Assembly: GCA_949288485.1 (NCBI GenBank)
Contig: CASEKC010000001.1
Coordinates: 166,241 to 230,240 of the forward strand
Reading direction: 5' to 3'
DNA length: 64,000 nt
From: an uncultured bacterium
Lineage (GTDB): Bacteria > Bacillota_I > Bacilli_A > RFN20 > CAG-826
In this document: positions 51,274-63,094 of the stretch, piece by piece
Layout of the letters: each line of letters starts with the position of its first letter
How positions within the stretch are numbered: the first letter of the stretch is position 1
Made by a program: the position numbers and the translations under genes
The notes under the pieces: model-generated
What the model was told of the DNA's origin: nothing
Seen by the model: the letters and a program-made list of their open reading frames with translations, nothing else
Database searches by the model: none

Positions 51274-52078
51274 TACTATCGCTAGTTAATGACATAATAT
51301 TTTCAAATGCAGTAAAGAAGTTATCAGCACTATAACTTTCAAGTTCGCCATTATAAGCAATTGAAATTCTTCCAGTTTCTTCACTAACAACTACTGTTAC
51401 AGCATCGCATATTTCGCTAATTCCAATAGCTGCTCTATGTCTAGAACCATATTTACCAACAAGAGGTTTTGTTGTAGGGGTATAATAAACGCTTGCTGCC
51501 ATTATTTTGTTGTCTTTAATAACTACTGCTCCATCATGAAGTCTTGTTCCTGGATAAAAGATAGTAATTAATACTTCAAAAGAAACAGGACAATTAATAA
51601 TTGTTCCATTTTTTACGATATCTGATAATTTATCTTTTCTTTCAAAAGTAATTAAGGCACCAATTTTATGTTTAGATAAATATAAAACAGTTTCATTGAT
51701 TGTTTTATAAAGTTCATCATGATCAAAAATACGTTCAACTTCACCTTTTTTCTTAGCAATAATCTTATCATTCTTTTTTTGAGAAGATTTATTTGCAATA
51801 AATGTTCGAAGTTCAGCAAGATTTATAAAAAGACCAACGAAAGCAACTAAAAATATAACTAAAAGTGAAAATAATTGTAATCCATCAAAGCATAAAATAT
51901 GAGAAATAAAGAAAATTCCTGATGATATACCTAATGAAATTTGAATTAACTTTCTTTTAACAAAATAATCGACAATGAAATTAATCAATCCTAAAGTTAA
52001 AGCAACAAAAACACAATCTAAAATAGCATTGACTGTCAATTCATCAAAAACTGTTTTAAATTGTAATAAGTTAATCAT
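51266..52078 (-). CDS. cdaA: diadenylate cyclase CdaA (c-di-AMP synthase)
   Basis: N-terminal TM helices are followed by a DAC domain (GALITFE…RLHDGAVVI…GSRHRAAIGISE…TVVVSEETG). Confidence 0.85.
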   Translation of the reverse strand: MINLLQFKTVFDELTVNAILDCVFVALTLGLINFIVDYFVKRKLIQISLGISSGIFFISHILCFDGLQLFSLLVIFLVAFVGLFINLAELRTFIANKSSQKKNDKIIAKKKGEVERIFDHDELYKTINETVLYLSKHKIGALITFERKDKLSDIVKNGTIINCPVSFEVLITIFYPGTRLHDGAVVIKDNKIMAASVYYTPTTKPLVGKYGSRHRAAIGISEICDAVTVVVSEETGRISIAYNGELESYSADNFFTAFENIMSLTSDSSD

Positions 52079-53501
52079 GTTTATTCCCTTCTTTCTTTAA
52101 AATTTCTCTTGCAATATAAACACCATTTGCACCAGCTTGAGCTAAGCCTCTTGTAATTCCCGCTCCATCTCCACCAACATATAATCCATGAATAGCGGTT
52201 TCAAAATTATTATCACATTCTATTCGATCACTATAGAATTTAGCTTCAACACCATAAAGCAATGTGCTTCCTCCGGCAATACCGGGAGTAACATGATCTA
52301 ATGCTTCAAGCATTTCAATAATTGATTGCATAGTTTTATAAGGTAAGACAAGAGCTAAATCACCAGGAACTGCTTCTTTTAATGTCGGAATAACGAAATT
52401 ATCATTAATTCTTTTATATGTTGAACGTCTTCCTTTAATAATATCGCTATATCTTTGCACAATAACGGAACCATTTGATAGTTTATTAGCTAAAGAGGCA
52501 ACCTCATAAGCATATCCATTCGCATCTTTAAATGGCTCAGTAAATTTATGCGAAACTAAAATAGCAAAGTTAGTATTTTCGCTTTTTAATGATGGGTCAC
52601 TATAAGCATGACCATTAGCAACCATAATTCCATTATTATTTTCAATAACAACATGTCCCGAAGGATTTGAGCAGAATGTTCTACACGTTGTTCCTACAGT
52701 TGTTTTGAAAATAAATTTTCCTTCATATAAATATTTATTGATATCCGTCATAATAACATCATTAGTTTCAACTCTAACTCCAATATCAACTCTATTAGAA
52801 GAAACTTTTAATCCATGTTTACTTAAAACACTACTTAGCCAACTTGAGCCAGGCCTTCCAACTCCAAAAACAACATATTTAGAGAAATATTCATTTCCTT
52901 TAGAGTCGATAATACCTTTAATTTCGTTATTTTCGCCTACGATAATATCAGTAACATCGCAAACAAACTTCATATCAATATTCTTTTTAAGTTCTTCAAA
53001 AATAGAAGCCAAAAGTTTTAAATTAACTTCTGTGCCTAAATGTCTAACTTGACTTCTTAAAAGTTTTAAACCAACAGCAATACCTTTTCTCTCGATATCT
53101 AAAACTTCTTTTGTTGAAGGATCAGTAATAAATGTAGGCGCGCCATGATCTAAATTTATCTTATCAACATATTGAATTAAATCTAAAATTTGTTCTTTAG
53201 ATAAATATTCATTAAGCCATCCGCCAAATTCACTTGTAATATTAAATTTACCATCACTATATGCACCACAACCTCCAAATCCATGGGTCATTGAACAAGC
53301 TGGGTAACACCCACTATTCCCGTAAATATCAGAAGGACATTGTTTGACTTTCCCATTTAATATTGGACAAGTGCGGTGATAAATGTCATTACCTTTATCA
53401 ACTAATAATATTTTCAAAGAAGGATTATTCTTAACAAGTTCATATGAAGCATAAATTCCACATGGACCTGCTCCAACTAAAATTACATCATATTTATTCA
53501 T
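52071..53501 (-). CDS. FAD-dependent oxidoreductase (COG2509/HI0933-like family)
   Basis: An N-terminal FAD dinucleotide-binding motif DVILVGAGPCG and a C-terminal GLYVGGDGAG motif are present. Confidence 0.7.
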   Translation of the reverse strand: MNKYDVILVGAGPCGIYASYELVKNNPSLKILLVDKGNDIYHRTCPILNGKVKQCPSDIYGNSGCYPACSMTHGFGGCGAYSDGKFNITSEFGGWLNEYLSKEQILDLIQYVDKINLDHGAPTFITDPSTKEVLDIERKGIAVGLKLLRSQVRHLGTEVNLKLLASIFEELKKNIDMKFVCDVTDIIVGENNEIKGIIDSKGNEYFSKYVVFGVGRPGSSWLSSVLSKHGLKVSSNRVDIGVRVETNDVIMTDINKYLYEGKFIFKTTVGTTCRTFCSNPSGHVVIENNNGIMVANGHAYSDPSLKSENTNFAILVSHKFTEPFKDANGYAYEVASLANKLSNGSVIVQRYSDIIKGRRSTYKRINDNFVIPTLKEAVPGDLALVLPYKTMQSIIEMLEALDHVTPGIAGGSTLLYGVEAKFYSDRIECDNNFETAIHGLYVGGDGAGITRGLAQAGANGVYIAREILKKEGNKHD

Positions 53502-53550
53502 ACAAATAAATTATAGGTTAAAAGGGCTATTTTTTTAAGTTTTTTTTACT

Positions 53551-53582
53551 ATTTTTTCACTTCAGCATTTTTTCACTTCAGC
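53551..53582. repeat. tandem direct repeat of 2 x 16 bp (ATTTTTTCACTTCAGC)
   Basis: Two perfect contiguous copies lie 50-80 bp upstream of the FAD-oxidoreductase start and just downstream of the lipoprotein gene stop. Confidence 0.7.
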
Positions 53583-53637
53583 CTATTTATGAAACTAAAG
53601 AATTCTCAATAATATTGATACATTTTAAAAAAATATT

Positions 53638-54708
53638 TTATAAACTATAAGAAGTATTATATACAAAACTAGTAACAGGGTTATTTCCAATTACTGAACC
53701 ACTTGCTTCCATTATTTCAATAGTTGAAGTCATATCCACAATAAAAGGCGCTGCTTCTTCTTCGATTGGTTGTTCTATAAAATTAAATAATTTAAAACAA
53801 TTAAAAGGTTCAGAATTTTGGCTAACATATGGTTCATTATTACTATATGGATTTAAAAAAGTAACTTCGTTATATCCATAAGTAAGAAAATCGCTCCAAT
53901 ATTTAAACTCTACACAACCTGGATACATATAATGGCTACCTTCGATATAACAAGAATTATTATGAGTTAATCCACAATCTAAATAAAAATTAAATTGTTC
54001 TTCTGGATCTTCTCCATCATCATTCCCATAAGGAAGAACATCCCGTAAATTAAGGTTTTCTTTTGAAAAAAATACTTCGTTTTTAAAATGTTTATATCTT
54101 AACTTTTTATTATTTTGATTTAAAAAAATTTTATAAATATCTCCTAAAGCATAATCTTTAGTATCTTCGTATGTTTTTACAATATTTCCAAAACAATTAC
54201 TTATTATTCTCCCAAAATTATTATTATTTTTATCTAATGATATTAAGTTCCTTTTTGAAAAAACTTTTTCCCGGTTTCCAATAAAATTCATTGTAACAGG
54301 ACCATTTAATAAATAAGGATCATGCGGATTCGTAATTTCTTCAATTAATTCATCTAAAGAAGTTGCAGACATTTCATCACTTCCAAAAAAGGATCCGTTT
54401 TTAATCACACCATTTTCAATATATTTAAAGGTTCCTAGTTCTTCTAAATATATATAATTTTCATTATTTTTACTAAAACTATTCTCCTTTTTATCATTAA
54501 ATAGAAAACAATCATCATTAAAAAAAATTTCATATCCTTCTTTATCAAGCGAACCAAAAGTTTTTGATTCATATAAATTATATTTTTTTATTAATTCATC
54601 AAACGTGAATTCATTTGTTTCTAAATTTGGGGTTGAACTACAACCTGTTAGATATAAAGAAATGAGTAAAAATAAAAATTTATTTAATATTTTTCTTTTC
54701 ATAAACAA
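53638..54708 (-). CDS. lipoprotein, unknown function
   Basis: A signal peptide with lipobox LTGC (MFMKRKILNKFLFLLISLYLTGCSS) is present. Its start overlaps the upstream XRE gene by 29 nt. Confidence 0.6.
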   Translation of the reverse strand: MFMKRKILNKFLFLLISLYLTGCSSTPNLETNEFTFDELIKKYNLYESKTFGSLDKEGYEIFFNDDCFLFNDKKENSFSKNNENYIYLEELGTFKYIENGVIKNGSFFGSDEMSATSLDELIEEITNPHDPYLLNGPVTMNFIGNREKVFSKRNLISLDKNNNNFGRIISNCFGNIVKTYEDTKDYALGDIYKIFLNQNNKKLRYKHFKNEVFFSKENLNLRDVLPYGNDDGEDPEEQFNFYLDCGLTHNNSCYIEGSHYMYPGCVEFKYWSDFLTYGYNEVTFLNPYSNNEPYVSQNSEPFNCFKLFNFIEQPIEEEAAPFIVDMTSTIEIMEASGSVIGNNPVTSFVYNTSYSL

Positions 54709-55186
54709 CCGTCCTTATTAAAAGTCCTAAAAATACAAAAAAAGCTATAAAAAAAAGAATAAAGAAAACTTTAAAAATAATTAATTCTAGAGTTTTCCAG
54801 CTAATATACCACCATAAAACTTCTAAAGATTGATATTCTTTCACATAAATAGGATTATAAATTGAATATATTATTTCGAATATTAATACTGCAAAACTTA
54901 AAAGACATCCGCTCAAAAATGAATATGAAATTATTTTAATTCGAACTAACTCTTTATCCTTATTAAAATTAGATTTTAAGGCTTCCCCAATAAATTCTTC
55001 ATATGAAACATTAAACGTTGTTAATATTCTATTTAAAATATAAATATCGATTGTTCTACTACCTTTTTCATATCGGCATAAAGAGCTTCTTGATATGCCA
55101 AGTTTATCAGCCAAAGCTTCTTGAGAAAGATTATTTTTTATTCGTAATTCTGTGATTTTATGACCGATAATTTCATTTGTTAGCAT
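54680..55186 (-). CDS. XRE-family HTH regulator with C-terminal transmembrane segments
   Basis: An N-terminal Cro/C1-type HTH (LRIKNNLSQEALADKLGISRSSLCRYEKG) is followed by 2-3 TM helices. Confidence 0.65.
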   Translation of the reverse strand: MLTNEIIGHKITELRIKNNLSQEALADKLGISRSSLCRYEKGSRTIDIYILNRILTTFNVSYEEFIGEALKSNFNKDKELVRIKIISYSFLSGCLLSFAVLIFEIIYSIYNPIYVKEYQSLEVLWWYISWKTLELIIFKVFFILFFIAFFVFLGLLIRTVVYEKKNIK

Positions 55187-55352
55187 ATTTCTATTTTAAT
55201 GAAGAAATACATTTTTTCAATGATCTTTATCTAACTAATTTGAATTTCCATTTGGACACAAATAAAATCAAAAAAAGTGACAAATAGGTACATCACAAAA
55301 TTAAAAAATAATGATAATTTGAAAATGTAATATATTTCAAGGGGGACATAAT

Positions 55353-56132
55353 ATGTTTACAAAAATCGGCATTATTGCTTCCGCTGTTTTGAGCATTTCT
55401 ACTTTAAGTCAAAATGTTATCAACAAAAAATTAGAGGCAACTTCAAACGAGATTAATAAAGCCGAAAACGAAATTATTTCACAAAACTATTCTGGCTTTG
55501 ATACTGATGATTATGAAGATGAAATTAAAACAAACTTAATTAGTTATTATGAAAATCATACTTCATATGTTTCTCCAGTCGTTTTAAAACAACTAAAAAA
55601 TTATTTATATGATAATGATTATAGTTTTATCAAATATGATTCAATCTCGCCAAATTCTATAGGTAATCGTTTAGATTTAATGTTTGATAAATTTGACGGA
55701 GGCGGAGGCGGTTCTTCTTCACAAACTTTAAAGCCAATTTCAGGTTATACCACATCAAATATTTCGGCAAATTAAACTTCAAGTATTAATGGCAAGGTTT
55801 TTGTCGGATTTACTTTAACTAAAGAAAGTGCAGTTGCTTTTTATAATTCAGTCTATTCAATATTTAATACCGTAACCGATATCTATTCTAATATAAGCGA
55901 ATCATTACCATATTTTCTTGAGGTTGCTGTTACATCAATAGCATCTAAACTTAACTTGTTAATTGCAGCGTTACCTACCGCTTTAAAGGTCATCGTTGCT
56001 GTGGTTGCAGTTGGTTTAGCATTAATTGTTGCTATAATTGCATGGTTTGGATATCATGAAAAAGGATTCTATATTGGTTTATTAAGAAACGGCTTCTTAA
56101 ATTGGACTTTTGAATGTGGCACAATAGAATAA
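55353..56132 (+). pseudogene. secreted/membrane-anchored protein gene interrupted by one in-frame TAA (55773-55775)
   Basis: ORF 55353-55775 has an N-terminal signal-like segment and a GGGGGSSS linker. In the same reading frame it continues after the TAA for 118 more codons to a TAA at 56130. The continuation has no ATG and ends in a C-terminal TM anchor (ALKVIVAVVAVGLALIVAIIAWFGY). Confidence 0.45.
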
Positions 56133-56144
56133 AGGTGATTATTT

Positions 56145-57074
56145 ATGAAACTTAAAAATTATCATCTAAGAAATATTGTTTTTATAATTATATTATTAGA
56201 TTTATTTACATTATTTAATTCAATTGTTCCTTTTTATTATCTTGACGCGGCAAGATTATTAATTTATTTATTTCAATTTTTAATAATATTAACATTAGCA
56301 AGACATTTTTATTTCTATATTAAAATAAATAATAAGATGCATTTATTAAAAGATAATTATTTTAAATTATTTTTAATATTATCTATTATACTTTTTAGCT
56401 ATGTAATAATTATAAATACTATTCTTTCTTTTATCTTAAAAGGAGGATTTAATCTTTTAGCGGTTTTAATTAATTTATTACTTCTTTTAATACATAATAT
56501 CTTTTTCTTATATTTCTATAAGAATAAGATATATAATGTAAATACTGAAGAATTTAATTTTCTAATTTTAAGAAATTCCTTTAAAAATGATAATGATGAA
56601 TATAATTTAAATCATCTTAAAGAAATAAGATTAATTAGGTTAATCTCTTCTTTATTCCCATTTATATTTTCTTTTGTTATAACTTTTATTATTTTAGCAG
56701 TTGAAATAAATACTTCAATTTTAAGTTTAACTATTATTGGTTCAATTTCTTTTTTATTTCTTATTGGATTATTTATTTTTAATTTTATTTATAATGAAAA
56801 ACATCAAATATTTAAAAGATCTAAATTAATTATATCTTATATTGTTAAAGCTCTTCTTTTAGCTCTTTTAATCTTAATAACTTTTTACTATAAAGAAAAT
56901 TACTTATCTGAAGCACTTGTTTCAATAGAAAATAATAATGAATTTTATCTATTTACATCTTTATTTGCATTAGCTTTTGCTCTTGTTTATCAATTATTTA
57001 ATTATGTATTATCTTCAATGAATTATTATGATGAATCATATATAAGGTATTTAATTAGAAACAACAAAAAATAA
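56145..57074 (+). CDS. polytopic membrane protein, very AT-rich and Ile/Leu/Phe/Asn-rich
   Basis: 309 aa with 7 or more TM helices. It starts 12 bp after the interrupted gene and has no recognisable family motif. Confidence 0.45.
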   Translation: MKLKNYHLRNIVFIIILLDLFTLFNSIVPFYYLDAARLLIYLFQFLIILTLARHFYFYIKINNKMHLLKDNYFKLFLILSIILFSYVIIINTILSFILKGGFNLLAVLINLLLLLIHNIFFLYFYKNKIYNVNTEEFNFLILRNSFKNDNDEYNLNHLKEIRLIRLISSLFPFIFSFVITFIILAVEINTSILSLTIIGSISFLFLIGLFIFNFIYNEKHQIFKRSKLIISYIVKALLLALLILITFYYKENYLSEALVSIENNNEFYLFTSLFALAFALVYQLFNYVLSSMNYYDESYIRYLIRNNKK

Positions 57075-57305
57075 TCTTCTTTATAAATAAATAAAATTTT
57101 AATGAATATAAATTCGATGATTATTTATCTTTTTTTAACAAAGTTATATGACAAATATTTAAATAAGTAATAAATTAACTAGCTATATCTTTTATAAAAA
57201 AAGCATCAGCTTCTTTTAAAAATAAAAAAATAAGTTTACTTTATTTATTATTTCTTTTTTATCATCGATTTATTTATTAATTATTAATTTTTACTAATTT
57301 TAATT

Positions 57306-57554
57306 ATGGAAGTTAGTTACTTAACAATTAATAATTCTTTAGATTTTACTATTTTGAAAGATTTTAATTATTATTCTTTAATTTTCGTTATTTTAATTAT
57401 ATTTATTTATATTATTAAATGTTTATTAATAATAAACTTATTATTAGTTAAAAAGAACGAATTATTTAATAAAAAATTTTGGGTGATTTTTAAAGAAACT
57501 TTGACTAAGATGTGGTATATTAATTTAGTGATTTATGGAATTTTCAAAATATAA
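57306..57554 (+). CDS. possible small single-TM protein
   Basis: 82 aa with one TM helix. It overlaps the start of the SpoU gene by 20 nt and could be a spurious AT-rich ORF. Confidence 0.2.
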   Translation: MEVSYLTINNSLDFTILKDFNYYSLIFVILIIFIYIIKCLLIINLLLVKKNELFNKKFWVIFKETLTKMWYINLVIYGIFKI

Positions 57555-58275
57555 AAAAATATACGATTACTCATATACTTTAGGAGCCTTCCCAACAATA
57601 GAACTTATCAACAATAAACCCGAAAATGTTTTAAAAATTTTAATTCATTCTTCTTTTAAAAACGAAGAAGTATTAAACAATATTTTTATAAAATTACCTA
57701 AAGAAAAAGTTGAAATCACTTCTTCTAATAAAATTTTTAATATTTTAAGCGATAAAGAAAATGTTTTTATCATAGGTTTTTTTAAAAAATATCATACAAA
57801 TTTAGATAATAATGATGACCATATATTATTAGATAATCCTTCAAATATGGGAAATCTAGGAACAATGATACGTTCATCTCTTGGTTTTAACATTAAAAAT
57901 ATTGCAATTATTACACCAGGTGTTGATTATTTTGATCCAAAAGTTATCCGTTCATCAATGGGATCTATTTTTAGTGTAAATATAGAATATTTTAATTCAT
58001 TAAAAGAATATAAAGAAAAATATAAAAATCACATTATTTATTCTTTTATGTTACAAACTGATAAATATTTGGATAACTATAAATTTAATTTTAAAAAAGA
58101 CTTATATTCAACACTTGCTTTTGGAAACGAAGCAACAGGTTTAAATTATGATTTATATAAAAATGAAAATCCTATAAAAATTAACATTTCTTCAAAAATA
58201 GATTCTTTAAATATTACTAACGCATTAACAATCGCAACTTATGAGTTCGATAAACAAAAAAGGAATAATAAATAA
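57535..58275 (+). CDS. SpoU/TrmH-family RNA 2'-O-methyltransferase with N-terminal L30e-like domain (RlmB/Tsr-type architecture), accessory copy
   Basis: SpoU motifs 1-3 are present (NMGNLGTMIRSSLGF; LAFGNEATGLN; INISSKIDSLNITNALTIATYEF) with an N-terminal ~70-aa substrate-binding-like domain. Confidence 0.7.
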   Translation: MEFSKYKKIYDYSYTLGAFPTIELINNKPENVLKILIHSSFKNEEVLNNIFIKLPKEKVEITSSNKIFNILSDKENVFIIGFFKKYHTNLDNNDDHILLDNPSNMGNLGTMIRSSLGFNIKNIAIITPGVDYFDPKVIRSSMGSIFSVNIEYFNSLKEYKEKYKNHIIYSFMLQTDKYLDNYKFNFKKDLYSTLAFGNEATGLNYDLYKNENPIKINISSKIDSLNITNALTIATYEFDKQKRNNK

Positions 58276-58278
58276 ATT

Positions 58279-59082
58279 ATGAAGTTTGTTAACGAAAAAA
58301 AGGTTTATTCAATGTTTGAAGTTACAAAAGCTTCATCTTTTTCTAGAAATTTTCTTTTAGAATTAGAAGAAAATAATTTAATCGAGCCTTATTTTAAAGA
58401 CAAAAATACATCGTATCGATATTATGATGAAACAATTTTTATTAAATTAAATGAAATTAAAACTTTATTAAATGCTGGATTAAGTAAAAACGAAATAAAA
58501 GAATACTATATAAATAACGATTTAGATGATGAGTCATTATTAAAAAAAGAAAATAAAGAAAAAATTATCCGATCATTAAAAAATAAAAAAGATGATATTG
58601 ATACATCTTTGCTCTTTTTATCATCCTTAGTTAATAAAACTTATAAAAAGAAAATGGATGAAATTGTTTATTATTATGAAGAAAGAAACATTAATAATGT
58701 TAATCTTATTTCTCCATTATTAAAAGAAATCTATATACATGCTTTAGCAAAAAATTATTGTTTCTCTTCTTTTCCACCATTCGTTTTATTCCCTAAAACA
58801 TTATTAAACGATGAAAACAATGATATTTTTTCAAACGGAACTAACTATATAAAGGTAAAAATTTGTATACCTTTAATTAGAAAATATGATGAAAAAAATA
58901 TTGAATCTCTACAAAAAAATATCTCTTTAATTTATGAAATTAACAAAACTTCTTTTTTAAATGCGTTTAAAAATTTTCAAAATATTGTTAAAAATAATCC
59001 TTCAAACGATTTTTTATATCTTTTCTTTTTAAATAATGAAAAATTAAAAATTCATAAATTTATCATGCCTATAAATATCTAA
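58279..59082 (+). CDS. MerR-family HTH regulator with a ~190-aa C-terminal putative ligand-binding domain
   Basis: An N-terminal MerR HTH (YSMFEVTKASSFSRNFLLELEENNLIEPYFKDKNTSYRYYDETIFIKLNEIKTLLNAGLSKNEIKEY) is present. The start is 4 nt after the SpoU stop. Confidence 0.6.
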   Translation: MKFVNEKKVYSMFEVTKASSFSRNFLLELEENNLIEPYFKDKNTSYRYYDETIFIKLNEIKTLLNAGLSKNEIKEYYINNDLDDESLLKKENKEKIIRSLKNKKDDIDTSLLFLSSLVNKTYKKKMDEIVYYYEERNINNVNLISPLLKEIYIHALAKNYCFSSFPPFVLFPKTLLNDENNDIFSNGTNYIKVKICIPLIRKYDEKNIESLQKNISLIYEINKTSFLNAFKNFQNIVKNNPSNDFLYLFFLNNEKLKIHKFIMPINI

Positions 59083-59161
59083 ATAATAAATTTAATTTGA
59101 TTTTCTTTTTTTATTTCTTCTATGATTATTAAACTTAATTTTAATATCAGGAGGAAAAAAG

Positions 59162-60325
59162 ATGAACGATATCGCAAATATTTCATTATTAGAGAACTTG
59201 GTCTTAGATAAACTTATACCAGTTACTGATGAAGAAGGGAATATCCTTTTCTTTACTTTAAAAAGAAAAAAAGAAAATAGAGAGAATATTTCTTTTACCT
59301 CAAATTCTTTTACTAATCAAAGTCAAACAAATAACTTTAACATTTTTATATCTTCTAATAGTTTTACTCCAAATAAAATAGAAAAGAAAATTGATGAATC
59401 TATTAAAAATATTTCTTCATTTAAAATTCGCTATTTAAATTATAAACGCACAGATTATTCAGAAACTTATTTATATACTATTGATAATAAAATTGATATT
59501 TATATTATTCCTTCATTTAATAATTTAACTGAAAATTTATTTTCTTTAAATTTTGTTGAAAGATTTAGAAAACTTGTTCAGCTTAAAGATTATGAGACTA
59601 AATATAAAAATTCAGTTCTTTATATATTAAAAGATATGATTAATTATGCTCGAAAAATTAATATTATTAATAGTGAAGAAAGAGATAACTTAATTGAATT
59701 TGTTAAACCATTTAAAGAAGTAAAAATTAATTATTATAAGCCAATAAGAAATCGCTATACTTCATATAAAGATTTTTTAAAACTTATAACAAATATCGAT
59801 GATTATAACGATAAAGTTTTATTTCGTTTATTATATTTTTCAGGGTTAAGAATCGGAGAATTTTTAGGAGTTCAAATAAAAGATATTCGTTTTAAGAAAA
59901 ATATTGCATATGTTCATATTTATAAACAAAAATTATCAATGAATGGAACCATTACAAAAAGATTAAAAAACCTTTCTTCTTATAAAGTAATCATATATAC
60001 ACATGAAAATTGTGAAATTTTAAAAGAATATATTTCTAGAAACATTTTAAAAGGTGAAGATTTTTTATTTGATACATATCGAGTAAAAATACAACGAAAA
60101 CTTGATAGATATCTAAAAAAAGCAAAACTAAAACACAATTCATTACATGGTTTTGGAAGAAAATCAATCAATACAGAACTTTATAAAATTGGTGCTGATA
60201 GTAAAGTTAGAACTACTCTTCTTGGACAAACTTCTACTCAAATCAATGAACAAAATTATATTGATAAAGAGGTTGCTTTAAAAAAAGCGATTAGATTTTT
60301 AGATGATATTCCTAATCAAATATAA
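59162..60325 (+). CDS. int: tyrosine recombinase / phage-type integrase
   Basis: The C-terminal catalytic domain carries box I Arg (LLYFSGLRIGEFLGVQIKDIRF), an HxxR box (HSLHGFGRKS) and a C-terminal Tyr region (LLGQTSTQINEQNYID). The N-terminal SAM-like domain is AT-rich. Confidence 0.8.
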   Translation: MNDIANISLLENLVLDKLIPVTDEEGNILFFTLKRKKENRENISFTSNSFTNQSQTNNFNIFISSNSFTPNKIEKKIDESIKNISSFKIRYLNYKRTDYSETYLYTIDNKIDIYIIPSFNNLTENLFSLNFVERFRKLVQLKDYETKYKNSVLYILKDMINYARKINIINSEERDNLIEFVKPFKEVKINYYKPIRNRYTSYKDFLKLITNIDDYNDKVLFRLLYFSGLRIGEFLGVQIKDIRFKKNIAYVHIYKQKLSMNGTITKRLKNLSSYKVIIYTHENCEILKEYISRNILKGEDFLFDTYRVKIQRKLDRYLKKAKLKHNSLHGFGRKSINTELYKIGADSKVRTTLLGQTSTQINEQNYIDKEVALKKAIRFLDDIPNQI

Positions 60326-60371
60326 ATAAAATAAAAAAATTATATCAAATTTATGATATAATTTTTTATGT

Positions 60372-60445
60372 GCCTCATTAGTTCAGTGGCAGAACACCAG
60401 CTTCCCAAGCTGGCTACACGGGTTCGATTCCCGCATGGGGCTCCA
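60372..60445 (+). tRNA. tRNA-Gly (anticodon CCC)
   Basis: The cloverleaf was folded by hand: acceptor GCCTCAT/ATGGGGC with one G-U pair, D-arm GTTC/GAAC, anticodon stem CCAGC/GCTGG with loop TTCCCAA, T-loop TTCGATT, discriminator U and an encoded CCA. It closely resembles Firmicutes tRNA-Gly. Confidence 0.85.
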
Positions 60446-60463
60446 TTAATCGTGAAAAATATC

Positions 60464-60497
60464 TAAACACACCTTTATTAGGTGTTTAAGTTTTTTT
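60464..60497 (+). terminator. terminator after tRNA-Gly
   Basis: aaACACCtttattaGGTGTttaagttttttt. Confidence 0.45.
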
Positions 60498-60651
60498 AAA
60501 AAAAATTAGATAAAAGTTAACAATTATATCGAAAAGTAAACATCTTAAGTCTTTATTGAACTCAACAAAGATTAACCGATTTTTTTATCAAGTTCCAATG
60601 TTATATTTGAATTGATGTAACATATCAAAAATTATGTAGTCATTAAAAATT

Positions 60652-61251
60652 TTGTTACTAATAAAAATCAAATTAAAAAATATGGATATTAAAATTTTAA
60701 AAAATAAAAACATAGAAATATTAATAAATAGATCGTTAAATCACACAATTAAATATATTTTATTTGATGAAAATAAAGAAGATGCATTTGAAACATCAAT
60801 TTTAGGTTCTTTTAAAATTAACGAATTTAAAAATTGTAAACATTTATTTAATACATTAGCGATATCCAAAAATGAAGAAATATTTTTTTCGTACAATGAA
60901 TTTTTAAAAATTCTTACCTTATCTAACTATGATTTTTTATATCTTGAAAAAGATTTAAAAATATTTAATAAGATTAAAGAAAATATTAACAAAGAATTTA
61001 TAGATGAAGAAATATTTGTATTTTTTAAAAATTTAGTTAATAAAACATTTAAATACTTTTTAAAAAATAAACACCAAATAAATTTAATCAAAACTCAGCA
61101 AAATAAAGATTTTAATAATTTGATTAATTTTTATTACTTAAATGATGAAACAAAAATATTAAATGTAAATTTATTTAATGATTTAAATATAAAGGGACTA
61201 ACTTCTTCTTTATTAATTAATCAAATTATCACTTTTAATCCATTAGATTAA
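60652..61251 (+). CDS. hypothetical protein
   Basis: 199 aa with no motif recognised. It lies between tRNA-Gly and the pst operon. Confidence 0.35.
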   Translation: MLLIKIKLKNMDIKILKNKNIEILINRSLNHTIKYILFDENKEDAFETSILGSFKINEFKNCKHLFNTLAISKNEEIFFSYNEFLKILTLSNYDFLYLEKDLKIFNKIKENINKEFIDEEIFVFFKNLVNKTFKYFLKNKHQINLIKTQQNKDFNNLINFYYLNDETKILNVNLFNDLNIKGLTSSLLINQIITFNPLD

Positions 61252-61817
61252 GCAGAAAATGATTTTGTTCTATTTTTTAAATATGAATTATTAATTTTTA
61301 TTTCATAAAGTAGATTTATATTATCACTTTTTATCTTTTTCCAACTTGAAATAGTATTTAAAGCTAATAAACTTACTTCTATTTCATAACTTCTTAAACA
61401 CGCAATTACAAACGTTTCTTCATCTAAATTAATTTCTTTATATTCTTTATTTCCTAAAAATAACAAAAATAACATTCTAGTCGCTTTATCTTCTTTATCA
61501 TTACTTAATAATTTTAATATTCCGCCATAAAAGAAACTTTTTTCAATTCTTTCTAATAAATCATATGGCAAAATTGTTTTTTCTAATGTAGGAAGCTTGT
61601 TATTTAAATATGAATGAACATTCCTTTTTAAAATTTCATATAAAGTTAATAATGAATTTTCACTTTTTTCATATCTAGCACCGTTATTAAAATCAATAAA
61701 TTCTTTATAGATATCCTTAAATTTTTTATATTGTTCTTCGTCTTTTTTAATGTTTAATTCTAAAGATGAAAATGATGGAAAATTATACGATGGTGCATAT
61801 ATTTTTAAACTATTCAA
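61248..61817 (-). CDS. hypothetical protein
   Basis: 189 aa with no motif recognised. It converges on the previous ORF with a 4-nt stop overlap. Confidence 0.35.
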   Translation of the reverse strand: MNSLKIYAPSYNFPSFSSLELNIKKDEEQYKKFKDIYKEFIDFNNGARYEKSENSLLTLYEILKRNVHSYLNNKLPTLEKTILPYDLLERIEKSFFYGGILKLLSNDKEDKATRMLFLLFLGNKEYKEINLDEETFVIACLRSYEIEVSLLALNTISSWKKIKSDNINLLYEIKINNSYLKNRTKSFSA

Positions 61818-61995
61818 TTTTTTGACCTCCTTTCAAACTTTTATAATAAAAATTAGTCCCTTATATATACAAGAAGGCTAAAAAATTAAATTTTATGTCG
61901 AAAAAATTAGATTTTTTTAATAATTTCAGAAATATTAAATAAATAGTAAATAATTAGTATTTTTTTAATAAATCCTCAATTTAAATCTATGAATC

Positions 61996-62023
61996 TTTAC
62001 AATTCCTTAACAATTCTTTACAT
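61996..62023 (+). promoter_or_regulatory. putative Pho box (three TT[AT]ACA direct repeats at 11-bp spacing) upstream of pstS
   Basis: TTTACAattccTTAACAattctTTACAT, ending about 80 bp before the pstS start. It matches the Firmicutes PhoP TT(A/T/C)ACA-N5 repeat architecture. Confidence 0.4.
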
Positions 62024-62101
62024 TCCTATGATTTATTGAACAAATTTTCGTACATATTATATAGGCGTGTTAAATAACACGGGGGAAAAATTTAAAAATA
62101 T

Positions 62102-63094
62102 ATGAAAAAAGTTTTATTAGCATGTGCATTATTAGCAAGTTGTTCATTATTAGCTACTTCTTGTGGCAATACTCCAAATCAACCAGACGTTAATCCAGGA
62201 GATGATACATTTGATACATCAAGAAATATTAATCTTTATTCAAGAGAAGCTGGTTCAGGAACAAGAGAATGTTTCTTTGAAGGAATTGGTTATGGAGATG
62301 TTGCAAAAGATGATAAATGGGAAAGTGGAGTAAGCGTTTCTAATTCAACATCAAATGGCGATATTATGAGTGCTGTCGGTTCTGATCCTTATGGAATTGG
62401 TTACTGTTCATTAGATGGAATTGGAGATAATACATCAATTAAAGCACTTTCATATAATGGAGTTACTCCTACAGAAGCAACAGTTATTGATGGTTCATAT
62501 GCATTACAAAGAAATTTCAATTATGTAATTAGAGATTATACTTCAACAACAGTTGATAATGGTGAAGCAAGAAGCCAAGTTGCTCACGCATTCATTGAAT
62601 TCTTCTCAACAGTTGAAGGTCAAAACCAAATTAAGAGTGCTGGAGGAATTGTTACTGAAAGTGCTACATCAACTTTTGAAGAATTAGTTGCCAAATATCC
62701 TATTTTAAGTGGCAATGAAACTGTTCAACTTTATACTTGCGGTTCTACTTCCGTTGAAAAAGTTTTAAATGCATCTATTTCTTATTTTACAGGTAATATT
62801 CCTAATAAAAATATCACAATTTCTTCAAGCCAAACAGGTAGTGGTGCAGCTGTTACAGGTATTACCGAAGGAAATAGTGGAACATTAGCTGATATTGGTT
62901 TCTTATCAAGAGAAATTAATGCTGAAGAATTAGTAAAATTAACAGAAGAAAACATTCATGATGCAATGTGTGTTGATGCTGTTGTTGCAATTGTTAATAG
63001 TAAAAATACGTCAGTTAATGATGCAAATGGAGAAACATTAACTTCTATTTATAAAGGTGAATTAAAAACCTGGGCTGAAGTCGCAGCTCTTTAA
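62102..63094 (+). CDS. pstS: phosphate ABC transporter substrate-binding lipoprotein
   Basis: A lipoprotein signal (MKKVLLACALLASCSLLATSCG) and a PBP-superfamily PstS core (YSREAGSGTRE…; SSSQTGSGAA) are present. Confidence 0.85.
   Translation: MKKVLLACALLASCSLLATSCGNTPNQPDVNPGDDTFDTSRNINLYSREAGSGTRECFFEGIGYGDVAKDDKWESGVSVSNSTSNGDIMSAVGSDPYGIGYCSLDGIGDNTSIKALSYNGVTPTEATVIDGSYALQRNFNYVIRDYTSTTVDNGEARSQVAHAFIEFFSTVEGQNQIKSAGGIVTESATSTFEELVAKYPILSGNETVQLYTCGSTSVEKVLNASISYFTGNIPNKNITISSSQTGSGAAVTGITEGNSGTLADIGFLSREINAEELVKLTEENIHDAMCVDAVVAIVNSKNTSVNDANGETLTSIYKGELKTWAEVAAL

Follow-up and report, generated by a model that had tools for sequence, protein, structure and literature searches.

Does an integrase gene that stands directly beside a tRNA gene mark the kilobases around it as a single mobile element? 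The question is raised by a 64,000-nucleotide stretch (hereafter, the window) of contig CASEKC010000001.1 from an uncultured bacterium of the Bacilli lineage CAG-826 (assembly GCA_949288485.1, positions 166,241 to 230,240), which has a very low G+C content (GC), about 25%, and gives clean reading frames under genetic code 11. In it, a gene for a tyrosine integrase has its stop codon 46 bp upstream of a gene for tRNA-Gly(CCC), an arrangement confirmed by PF00589, ARAGORN and Rfam. The original prediction, an annotation made from the letters of the window, had taken these two genes and their neighbours, from a gene for a flavin adenine dinucleotide (FAD)-dependent oxidoreductase to the pst operon (53.5-61.9 kb), for one decaying integrative element or genomic island. 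We found instead that the interval is a composite and not one element, with an intact integrase that occupies the same place in the same gene order throughout the clade, and that the accessory share of this 8.4-kb call comes down to 1.3 kb of integrase DNA and a separate insertion of 3.9 kb.

A conserved gene order with an intact integrase

Loci for comparison were metagenome contigs and metagenome-assembled genomes (MAGs) labelled 'uncultured Bacilli bacterium' (individual loci carry L-numbers here), from which integrase homologues were recovered with their flanks at 97%, 80%, 73%, 58% and 53-54% identity to the window copy. In all clade lineages examined, the genes follow in the order FAD-oxidoreductase (minus strand), SpoU-family methyltransferase, MerR regulator, integrase and tRNA-Gly(CCC), with a gap of 42-59 bp between the last two, and wherever the contigs extend past the tRNA gene, two orphan open reading frames (ORFs) and a pstSCAB-phoU-phoPR block come next. 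The integrase was found at this position and at full length in six of the six clade lineages, and was absent from all three outgroup lineages (L031, L032 and L034), which were reached via homologues of the MerR-like protein (39-50% identity). These outgroups share with the window a backbone of AdhE, Rex, NERD, PNP, DAC and FAD-oxidoreductase genes, the FAD-oxidoreductase being 75-79% identical there at the amino-acid level as against 92-99.6% within the clade. SpoU and the FAD-oxidoreductase gene are neighbours in all relatives, the three without integrase among them, and in L031 and L034, whose FAD-oxidoreductase is 78-79% identical, the tRNA-Gly(CCC) gene comes straight after MerR, at a distance of 12-30 bp (L031:8294-9851 and L034:7245-8826, corresponding to window positions 57535-59082 plus 60372-60445). 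Because the outgroups carry MerR and then tRNA-Gly without an integrase, SpoU, MerR and the tRNA gene are ancestral core genes, the first two of which had been mistaken for cargo. From the same gene orders, the integrase would be an ancient gain that is now fixed, with no polymorphism seen within the clade. The comparison of synteny bears out the original prediction in one respect, as outgroup genomes have SpoU, MerR and tRNA-Gly without an integrase, and goes against it in another, as the integrase does not vary within the clade.

The divergence of the integrase gene was compared with that of its neighbours by Nei-Gojobori estimates of non-synonymous (dN) and synonymous (dS) substitutions. 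Between the window and L012, integrase dS was 0.135 and that of the neighbours 0.11-0.13; the corresponding values were 0.62 and 0.51-0.67 for L004, and 0.97 and 0.69-0.95 for L009. Its dS equals that of the neighbouring genes, which speaks for vertical descent along with them. In 15 pairwise comparisons its dN/dS ratio was lowest, at 0.096, for the closest pair and reached at most 0.47, and the gene is kept under purifying selection rather than decaying. All 24 homologues compared retain the catalytic residues R230, K269, H329, R333 and Y366, and the sigma-70-type promoter, also recovered in a consensus scan, is conserved together with the AGGAGG ribosome-binding site in the window, L004, L006 and L009.

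By family, the integrase belongs with prophages. Two homologues (P0011 and P0017, 43% identity) each stand at the end of a complete prophage lysogeny module, in which a cI-like helix-turn-helix (HTH) gene and then the integrase lie on one strand and genes for Cro-like, YqaJ, RecT and SSB proteins lie on the other. The best tblastn matches in the phage database (GenBank/INPHARED) were Streptococcus prophage integrases at 25-31% identity, and sequence matches in the PDB were generic. The best-scoring NCBIfam models were Xer types, all far under their cut-offs (XerA with 43 of 220 bits, XerD with 30 of 330 and XerC with 29 of 335), and the integron integrase model reached 27 of 265 bits. A PHROGs scan of the region yielded no phage family besides the integrase, except generic HTH matches; megablast of the whole region against phages and a scan of IMG/VR with the integrase profile gave no match.

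The geometry of the pair, which had been flagged as uncommon, proved to be so. In L028, a prophage homologue of the integrase is followed after 61 bp by tRNA-Arg(ACG) on the opposite strand, so that the 3' end of the integrase gene faces the 3' end of the tRNA gene. By contrast, the window integrase faces the 5' end of tRNA-Gly, opposite to the canonical geometry. Of the 3919 islands in the Islander survey (PMC4383910), 159 have a 5' tDNA fragment and 3760 a 3' one, and because these 159 share the 5'-side geometry it is uncommon but known.

Repeats, allele exchange and insertion at the locus

Under the Islander definition, the far end of an island is marked by a displaced fragment of the target tRNA gene in the same orientation; tRNA-Gly is the only tRNA gene that ARAGORN reports in the window. 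The repeat search proposed with the original prediction, which had seen none by eye, confirmed that view: no k-mer of at least 15 bases is shared between tRNA-Gly and the 64-kb window, the best hit of an Islander-style blastn (word size 7) for tRNA-Gly fragments in the window had an E value of 0.47, and the same search in eight related loci gave chance internal matches only. No repeat was found at the phoR/yhhN boundary, where the variable interval downstream of the tRNA ends. Between integrase and tRNA-Gly sits a palindrome (60334-60367) whose two arms of 14 bp are parted by a 6-bp spacer. It is intact only in the window and in L004; L006 and L009 lack the left arm. The right arm coincides with the extended -10 box of tRNA-Gly, which is kept in all four aligned lineages. 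As a dif-like or core recombination site the palindrome was rejected on both grounds, the unconserved left arm and the -10 box on the right. Between 53.4 and 62.2 kb, the only inverted repeats were AT-rich, with complementarity of 70-88%, as is usual where GC is about 20%. A DNA inversion switch was likewise rejected, there being no convincing inverted repeats and no relationship between the two convergent ORFs.

The DNA around the integrase had been said to differ from the core genome, which holds for total GC and fails for synonymous sites. Total GC between 57.5 and 61.9 kb is low (15-21%, against about 25% for the window), with the deficit at codon positions 1 and 2. By contrast, GC at third codon positions (GC3) of the genes in this segment is 0.098-0.139, within the norm of the 55 window ORFs across which GC3 and synonymous codon usage were compared (mean GC3 0.117, standard deviation 0.032), and their synonymous usage is typical; compositional foreignness of 57.5-61.9 kb was therefore rejected at synonymous sites. 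The pst genes also have native GC3, and only 54.7-55.8 kb, within the 3.9-kb insertion, is mildly atypical in codon usage. The low GC reflects the amino-acid composition of weakly constrained proteins and not a foreign mutational signature. Within the clade, 57.5-61.9 kb largely presents the same genes in the same order, no integrase polymorphism and native composition, which is the picture that the original prediction had itself named as speaking against an island.

What sets the interval apart is allele exchange. In sliding comparisons, nucleotide identity between the window and L006 is 97-100% on either side of a stretch from about 51.9 kb to about 62.2 kb, and 70-90% within it; dS is 0.03-0.08 for flank genes and 0.7-0.9 for genes of the tract, with a step from 0.05 in DAC to 0.88 in the neighbouring FAD-oxidoreductase gene. 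The breakpoints lie at about 52.0 kb (the DAC/FAD-oxidoreductase junction) and about 62.1 kb (the start of pstS). By contrast, between the window and L012 the pattern is reversed, with dS of 0.11-0.135 from FAD-oxidoreductase through integrase and of 0.5-0.6 for DAC and PNP. The genome is thus a recombination mosaic, in which the segment from FAD-oxidoreductase to the orphan ORFs has been swapped as an allele by homologous recombination that broke in core genes or close to them. The interval looks different because of this exchange, and site-specific recombination is not needed to account for it.

The second accessory component is an insertion of 3.9 kb, whose junctions were resolved to the single base by empty-site alignments with L004, L006, L009 and L012. 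It sits in a T-run of the divergent intergenic region between FAD-oxidoreductase and SpoU, and TTTTT(T) stands at its left as well as its right junction. In the empty site the sequence is ...ACTATTTTTTT|AAAGAAA..., the left junction reading in the window ...ACTATTTTTT|CACTTCAGC... and the right junction ...GGGTGATTTTT|AAAGAAAC..., the insert beginning with CACTTCAGC... and ending with ...TTTTGGGTGA. L012 lacks the insertion although its integrase is 97% and its FAD-oxidoreductase 99.6% identical to those of the window, while L030 and other samples of the same strain carry it, always in the same context. It holds no recombinase or mobility gene. The orphan membrane and lipoprotein genes that had been counted as cargo of the integrase are real and all lie inside this insertion, where a tblastn search of the lipoprotein against plasmids gave no match and RstR/PezA-like HTH models matched the product of the HTH gene below their cut-offs. 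The interrupted secreted-protein gene is real too: its halves (55353-55775 and 55956-56132) share one frame and are separated by a single in-frame TAA. Because a gene of 140 aa is called at this position in L030, from another sample, this TAA appears to be a fixed nonsense mutation and not a sequencing error. No gene in the region departs further from native codon usage than the broken one (GC3 0.193, synonymous log-likelihood -0.84). The motif TTTTTTCACTTCAGC occurs only twice in the window, both copies forming the tandem duplication at the left junction. As a separate observation, the right insert end (reverse complement CACCCAAAATTTTTT) is weakly similar to TTTTTTCACTTCAGC.

Downstream of the tRNA gene the lineages diverge exactly at its last base. 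The window has here a slot without cargo. In L004 and L013 a GC-rich non-coding stretch precedes a 63-aa ORF and a gene for an AAA_14/DUF4143 ATPase; L006-L008 have a 51-aa ORF and a flavodoxin gene, L009 and L014 an isochorismatase gene, and L012 yet another sequence despite its 97%-identical integrase. Direct repeats flanking the slot cargo were sought at five loci and none was found. At the deeper timescale, the pst-phoU-phoPR block fills the interval from tRNA-Gly to yhhN in the clade, with yhhN after phoR; in L031 yhhN follows directly after tRNA-Gly, in L034 Fic, an acyltransferase and two unknown genes stand between them, and no pst genes occur at the tRNA-Gly position in either. Judged from these gene orders, the whole interval from the 3' end of tRNA-Gly to yhhN is variable on both shallow and deep timescales.

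Several observations on this flank stand on their own. The independent MAG contigs L012 and L015 end 105-113 bp after tRNA-Gly, that of L012 at 113 bp, which suggests strain heterogeneity or a repeated sequence in the slot within these populations. In L004 (11281-11660) and L013 (9278-9660) the slot opens with about 380 nt of non-coding sequence that is GC-rich (about 40%) and has no Rfam match; searched against Rfam, the window region and the L004 slot gave nothing except tRNA. This sequence may be a structured RNA that has escaped annotation, or one end of a small mobile element. The corresponding stretch of L012 (9285-9397) shares only the hairpin after the tRNA (ACATGTCTGATACA...GGGTGTGCAGAC followed by a T-run), with apparent compensatory changes in the inner stem. 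In L006 (15014-15834) pstC is split into ORFs of 198 and 67 aa, while L007, of the same lineage, has an intact gene of 339 aa; a pseudogene and an assembly error are both possible.

The two convergent ORFs had been described as motif-less, and indeed neither has a Pfam, NCBIfam or PADLOC match. Both are under purifying selection, with dN/dS of 0.26-0.46 for the plus-strand gene and of 0.15-0.22, in two alignable comparisons, for the minus-strand gene. When 1.8 billion representative proteins were searched for the former, just two other clusters (at 50% identity) came up, and in PHROGs it has a single weak hit (E 7e-4), whose function is unknown; for the latter, the AlphaFold2 model was unusable (mean predicted local distance difference test score, pLDDT, 47). 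They overlap by 4 bp (61248-61251), as they do in L004 but not in L006. The idea that they are inverted paralogues was rejected because their sequences are unrelated.

Among the core genes, SpoU is, as had been noted, the second paralogue of its kind in the window, the other lying at about 12.7-13.1 kb. The AlphaFold2 model of the MerR-like protein (mean pLDDT 83) has a long helix at residues 87-115 and an alpha/beta C-terminal domain, and Foldseek aligned it over its full length with EcmrR (6xl5, E 1.7e-10) and BmrR (E 1e-9). On this model, the protein falls in the BmrR/EcmrR subfamily and is predicted to be a drug-sensing regulator. A scan of JGI metagenomes with the MerR profile gave no match. 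A role as excisionase of the integrase was ruled out, as the protein has a BmrR fold and occurs without integrase in the outgroups. SpoU, this regulator and tRNA-Gly(CCC) form a tightly packed unit, which may be a ligand-induced, resistance-like RNA methyltransferase module or one in which a tRNA is co-transcribed with its modifier. The features of the locus are listed in Table 1.

Table 1. Position, strand and basis of assignment of the features at the tRNA-Gly(CCC) locus, in window coordinates
Feature	Coordinates	Strand	Basis or remark
Divergent allele tract relative to L006, about 10 kb	51950..62150		Sliding nucleotide identity; per-gene dS
FAD-dependent oxidoreductase	52071..53501	-	Pfam Pyr_redox_2 and FAD-depend_C; core gene, left flank
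Tandem duplication, TTTTTTCACTTCAGC twice	53552..53583	+	Spans left junction of insertion; 15-nt motif, period 16 bp, perfect
Strain-specific insertion, 3.9 kb	53558..57486		Empty-site alignments with L004, L006, L009 and L012
Orphan lipoprotein	53638..54708	-	Signal peptide and LTGC lipobox; no family match; inside insertion
XRE-family HTH protein with C-terminal membrane anchor	54680..55186	-	HTH_3, E 1.9e-13; inside insertion
Broken secreted/membrane protein gene, 259 codons	55353..56132	+	One in-frame TAA at 55773-55775; inside insertion
Orphan polytopic membrane protein	56145..57074	+	Translation; no family match; inside insertion
SpoU/TrmH-family RNA 2'-O-methyltransferase	57535..58275	+	PF00588, E 3.5e-25
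BmrR/EcmrR-type MerR regulator (predicted)	58279..59082	+	Pfam MerR_1; HTH, coiled coil, GyrI-like ligand domain
Integrase promoter, sigma-70-type	59097..59126	+	TTGATT, 18 nt, TATGAT, then AGGAGG ribosome-binding site
Solitary prophage-family tyrosine integrase, 387 aa	59162..60325	+	PF00589, E 9.5e-15; phrog_1, E 6e-25
tRNA-Gly extended -10 promoter (TATGATATAAT)	60352..60362	+	Kept in all four aligned lineages
tRNA-Gly(CCC)	60372..60445	+	ARAGORN; Rfam tRNA, 61 bits
Cargo-free, lineage-variable slot, 150 bp	60446..60595	+	tRNA terminator hairpin at 60469-60485
Clade-restricted orphan gene	60652..61251	+	Likely start ATG 60682, giving 189 aa; relatives 183-190 aa
Clade-restricted orphan gene, all-helical	61248..61817	-	189 aa; three homologues found
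pstS	62102..63094	+	PBP_like_2; first gene of pst-phoU-phoPR block

History of the locus and competing explanations

We consider it probable that an ancient integrative element was reduced at this locus to its integrase, which has been retained for some reason. The ancestral order would have been SpoU, a BmrR-like regulator and tRNA-Gly(CCC), beside the FAD-oxidoreductase gene. In the ancestor of the clade, a group of uncultured low-GC Bacilli, an integrative element with an integrase of the prophage family would have come to lie on the 5' side of tRNA-Gly, and would later have been lost apart from the integrase gene and its promoter (about 1.3 kb between MerR and the tRNA), leaving no attachment-site (att) repeat. 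The lone integrase would then have been inherited vertically with its neighbours, intact, probably expressed and probably catalytically competent, while the interval from the 3' end of tRNA-Gly to yhhN would have stayed variable and here come to comprise the cargo-free slot, the two orphan genes and the pst-pho operon. In a separate and recent event, the 3.9-kb block of membrane, lipoprotein and regulator genes entered the T-run, probably by illegitimate or microhomology-mediated recombination, and the present diversity at the locus would stem mainly from homologous recombination that swaps alleles of about 6-10 kb. Of the accessory DNA that had been placed here, the phage-derived integrase, the 3.9-kb block and the variable 3' flank of the tRNA gene stand in this history, and SpoU and MerR pass to the core.

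Five points weigh against this history. No other phage gene stands beside the integrase, family membership being the one argument for a prophage origin. The position on the 5' side, opposite to that of the L028 homologue, fits poorly with integration into the 3' end of a tRNA gene. Long purifying selection would not be expected on a useless remnant, and some current function is implied. The pst-pho block accompanies the integrase without exception, five lineages having both and two outgroups having neither at this position, so that their joint acquisition is conceivable. Finally, the comparators are all metagenome contigs or MAGs, which give a view of the locus rather than of copy numbers and whole genomes.

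Given that selection implies some function, the integrase could be a domesticated resident recombinase that takes up or excises the small cargo of the slot, or that works in trans for elements or phages which target tRNA-Gly and bring no integrase of their own. The purifying selection, the intact active site and a promoter conserved over genus-level divergence would all agree with such a role, as would a slot which, at least 50 bp downstream, differs among lineages even at 97% integrase identity, and the two MAG contigs that break about 110 bp after tRNA-Gly. However, neither direct repeats nor a shared core flank any slot variant, tRNA fragments were not found in the window or the related loci, and the outgroups vary downstream of tRNA-Gly without having an integrase at all. 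The slot variants look like non-homologous replacements between conserved flanks, which homologous recombination can explain, and we regard a resident recombinase as unlikely. It is quite improbable that a phage integrase has been domesticated in these uncultured gut Bacilli as a minimal chromosomal capture platform distinct from integrons, or as a shared integration function, that leaves no att repeats derived from the tRNA.

The co-occurrence with the pst-pho block could instead be taken to mean that the integrase, the tRNA-Gly flank, the two orphan ORFs and pstSCAB-phoU-phoPR form one ancient, ameliorated island of about 11 kb, which would reach from the integrase to yhhN and for the most part lie beyond the stretch first flagged. 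L031 has nothing between tRNA-Gly and yhhN, and L034 has unrelated cargo there (Fic and the acyltransferase), while all integrase-bearing lineages with data carry the orphan ORFs and the pst-pho genes in this place. However, the ancestral tRNA gene lies between integrase and cargo, so that a single insertion would have to span or duplicate it, and the phoR/yhhN boundary lacks a repeat. The pst genes are native in GC3, the co-occurrence amounts phylogenetically to one observation (one clade against its outgroups), and the outgroups may simply have relocated or lost pst. Such an island is in our judgement improbable.

The single decaying element or island of 53.5-61.9 kb, from FAD-oxidoreductase to pst, drew on the integrase adjoining a tRNA gene, on orphan genes, a gene interrupted by a nonsense codon and low total GC, and on a divergent allele tract that roughly matches the interval. 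The same tract takes in the core FAD-oxidoreductase gene as well, and the remaining evidence makes this explanation very unlikely: SpoU and MerR are core genes found without integrase in the outgroups, the 3.9-kb block is later and independent, the close relative L012 having the integrase without the block, the integrase shows no decay, codon usage and GC3 have a native profile, and no att repeats exist. Largely refuted is a housekeeping recombinase, be it a single Xer-like dimer-resolution enzyme acting at an adjacent dif-like site or an expression-switching invertase, for which the conserved position, the purifying selection, the palindrome between integrase and tRNA-Gly and the rank of Xer types at the top of the NCBIfam scores could be cited, but against which stand a palindrome that lacks its left arm in L006 and L009 and doubles as a tRNA -10 box, Xer and integron scores far under cut-off, nearest relatives that are prophage integrases, the absence of the gene from closely syntenic outgroups and the lack of convincing inverted repeats.

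Relation to known integrase systems

The locus resembles the tRNA-targeting islands and prophages of the Islander collection (PMC4383910) in having a tyrosine integrase of the prophage family directly beside a tRNA gene, in a tRNA flank that is a hotspot with lineage-specific cargo, and in that homologous integrases of related bacteria occur in complete prophages beside tRNA-Arg. Unlike these islands, it has no displaced tRNA fragment or att repeat and no cargo between integrase and tRNA-Gly, and its integrase lies on the 5' side of the tRNA gene, as in about 4% of Islander islands. Also unlike them, the integrase is fixed in the clade and under purifying selection rather than strain-variable, in DNA of native composition.

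Cryptic prophage remnants offer a closer likeness in one respect: there, too, a solitary integrase has relatives in intact prophages, the element is gone and no att sites can be recognised. By contrast, the integrases of such remnants are usually frameshifted and patchy in distribution, whereas the one described here is intact in six lineages, with dN/dS down to 0.10 and a conserved promoter. Adjacent phage genes or decay, by which a defective prophage would be recognised, were not seen, the neighbours being the core SpoU and BmrR-like genes and the tRNA gene.

In single-recombinase Xer systems (XerS/difSL and XerH/difH), one conserved gene for a tyrosine recombinase keeps a fixed place on the chromosome and has a palindromic site, the dif-like site being an imperfect palindrome of two arms of about 11 bp and a spacer of 6-8 bp. 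The window integrase is likewise single, conserved and fixed in position, with a palindrome of the right architecture nearby. Unlike the Xer systems, its palindrome is not conserved, the models reject its membership, syntenic outgroups are without the gene and its relatives are phage integrases. An integron platform consists of intI, attI and cassettes, and the window shares with it a resident integrase beside a site where small cargo genes, promoter-less in appearance, vary between strains. Unlike an integron, the site has no attC-like repeats, the integrase does not match IntI, and the cargo consists of unrelated single genes without common boundaries.

Taken together, the locus is an ordinary hotspot anchored at tRNA-Gly, with an unusually well-preserved orphan integrase. 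It illustrates that the signal of an integrase next to a tRNA gene can mislead about the extent of an island. What is worth notice is a solitary phage integrase kept for long under purifying selection on the uncommon 5' side of a tRNA gene. If this integrase is active, it would be a case, amenable to study, of a domesticated integrase in an uncultured lineage of the gut; if not, the locus would be one of routine genome plasticity.

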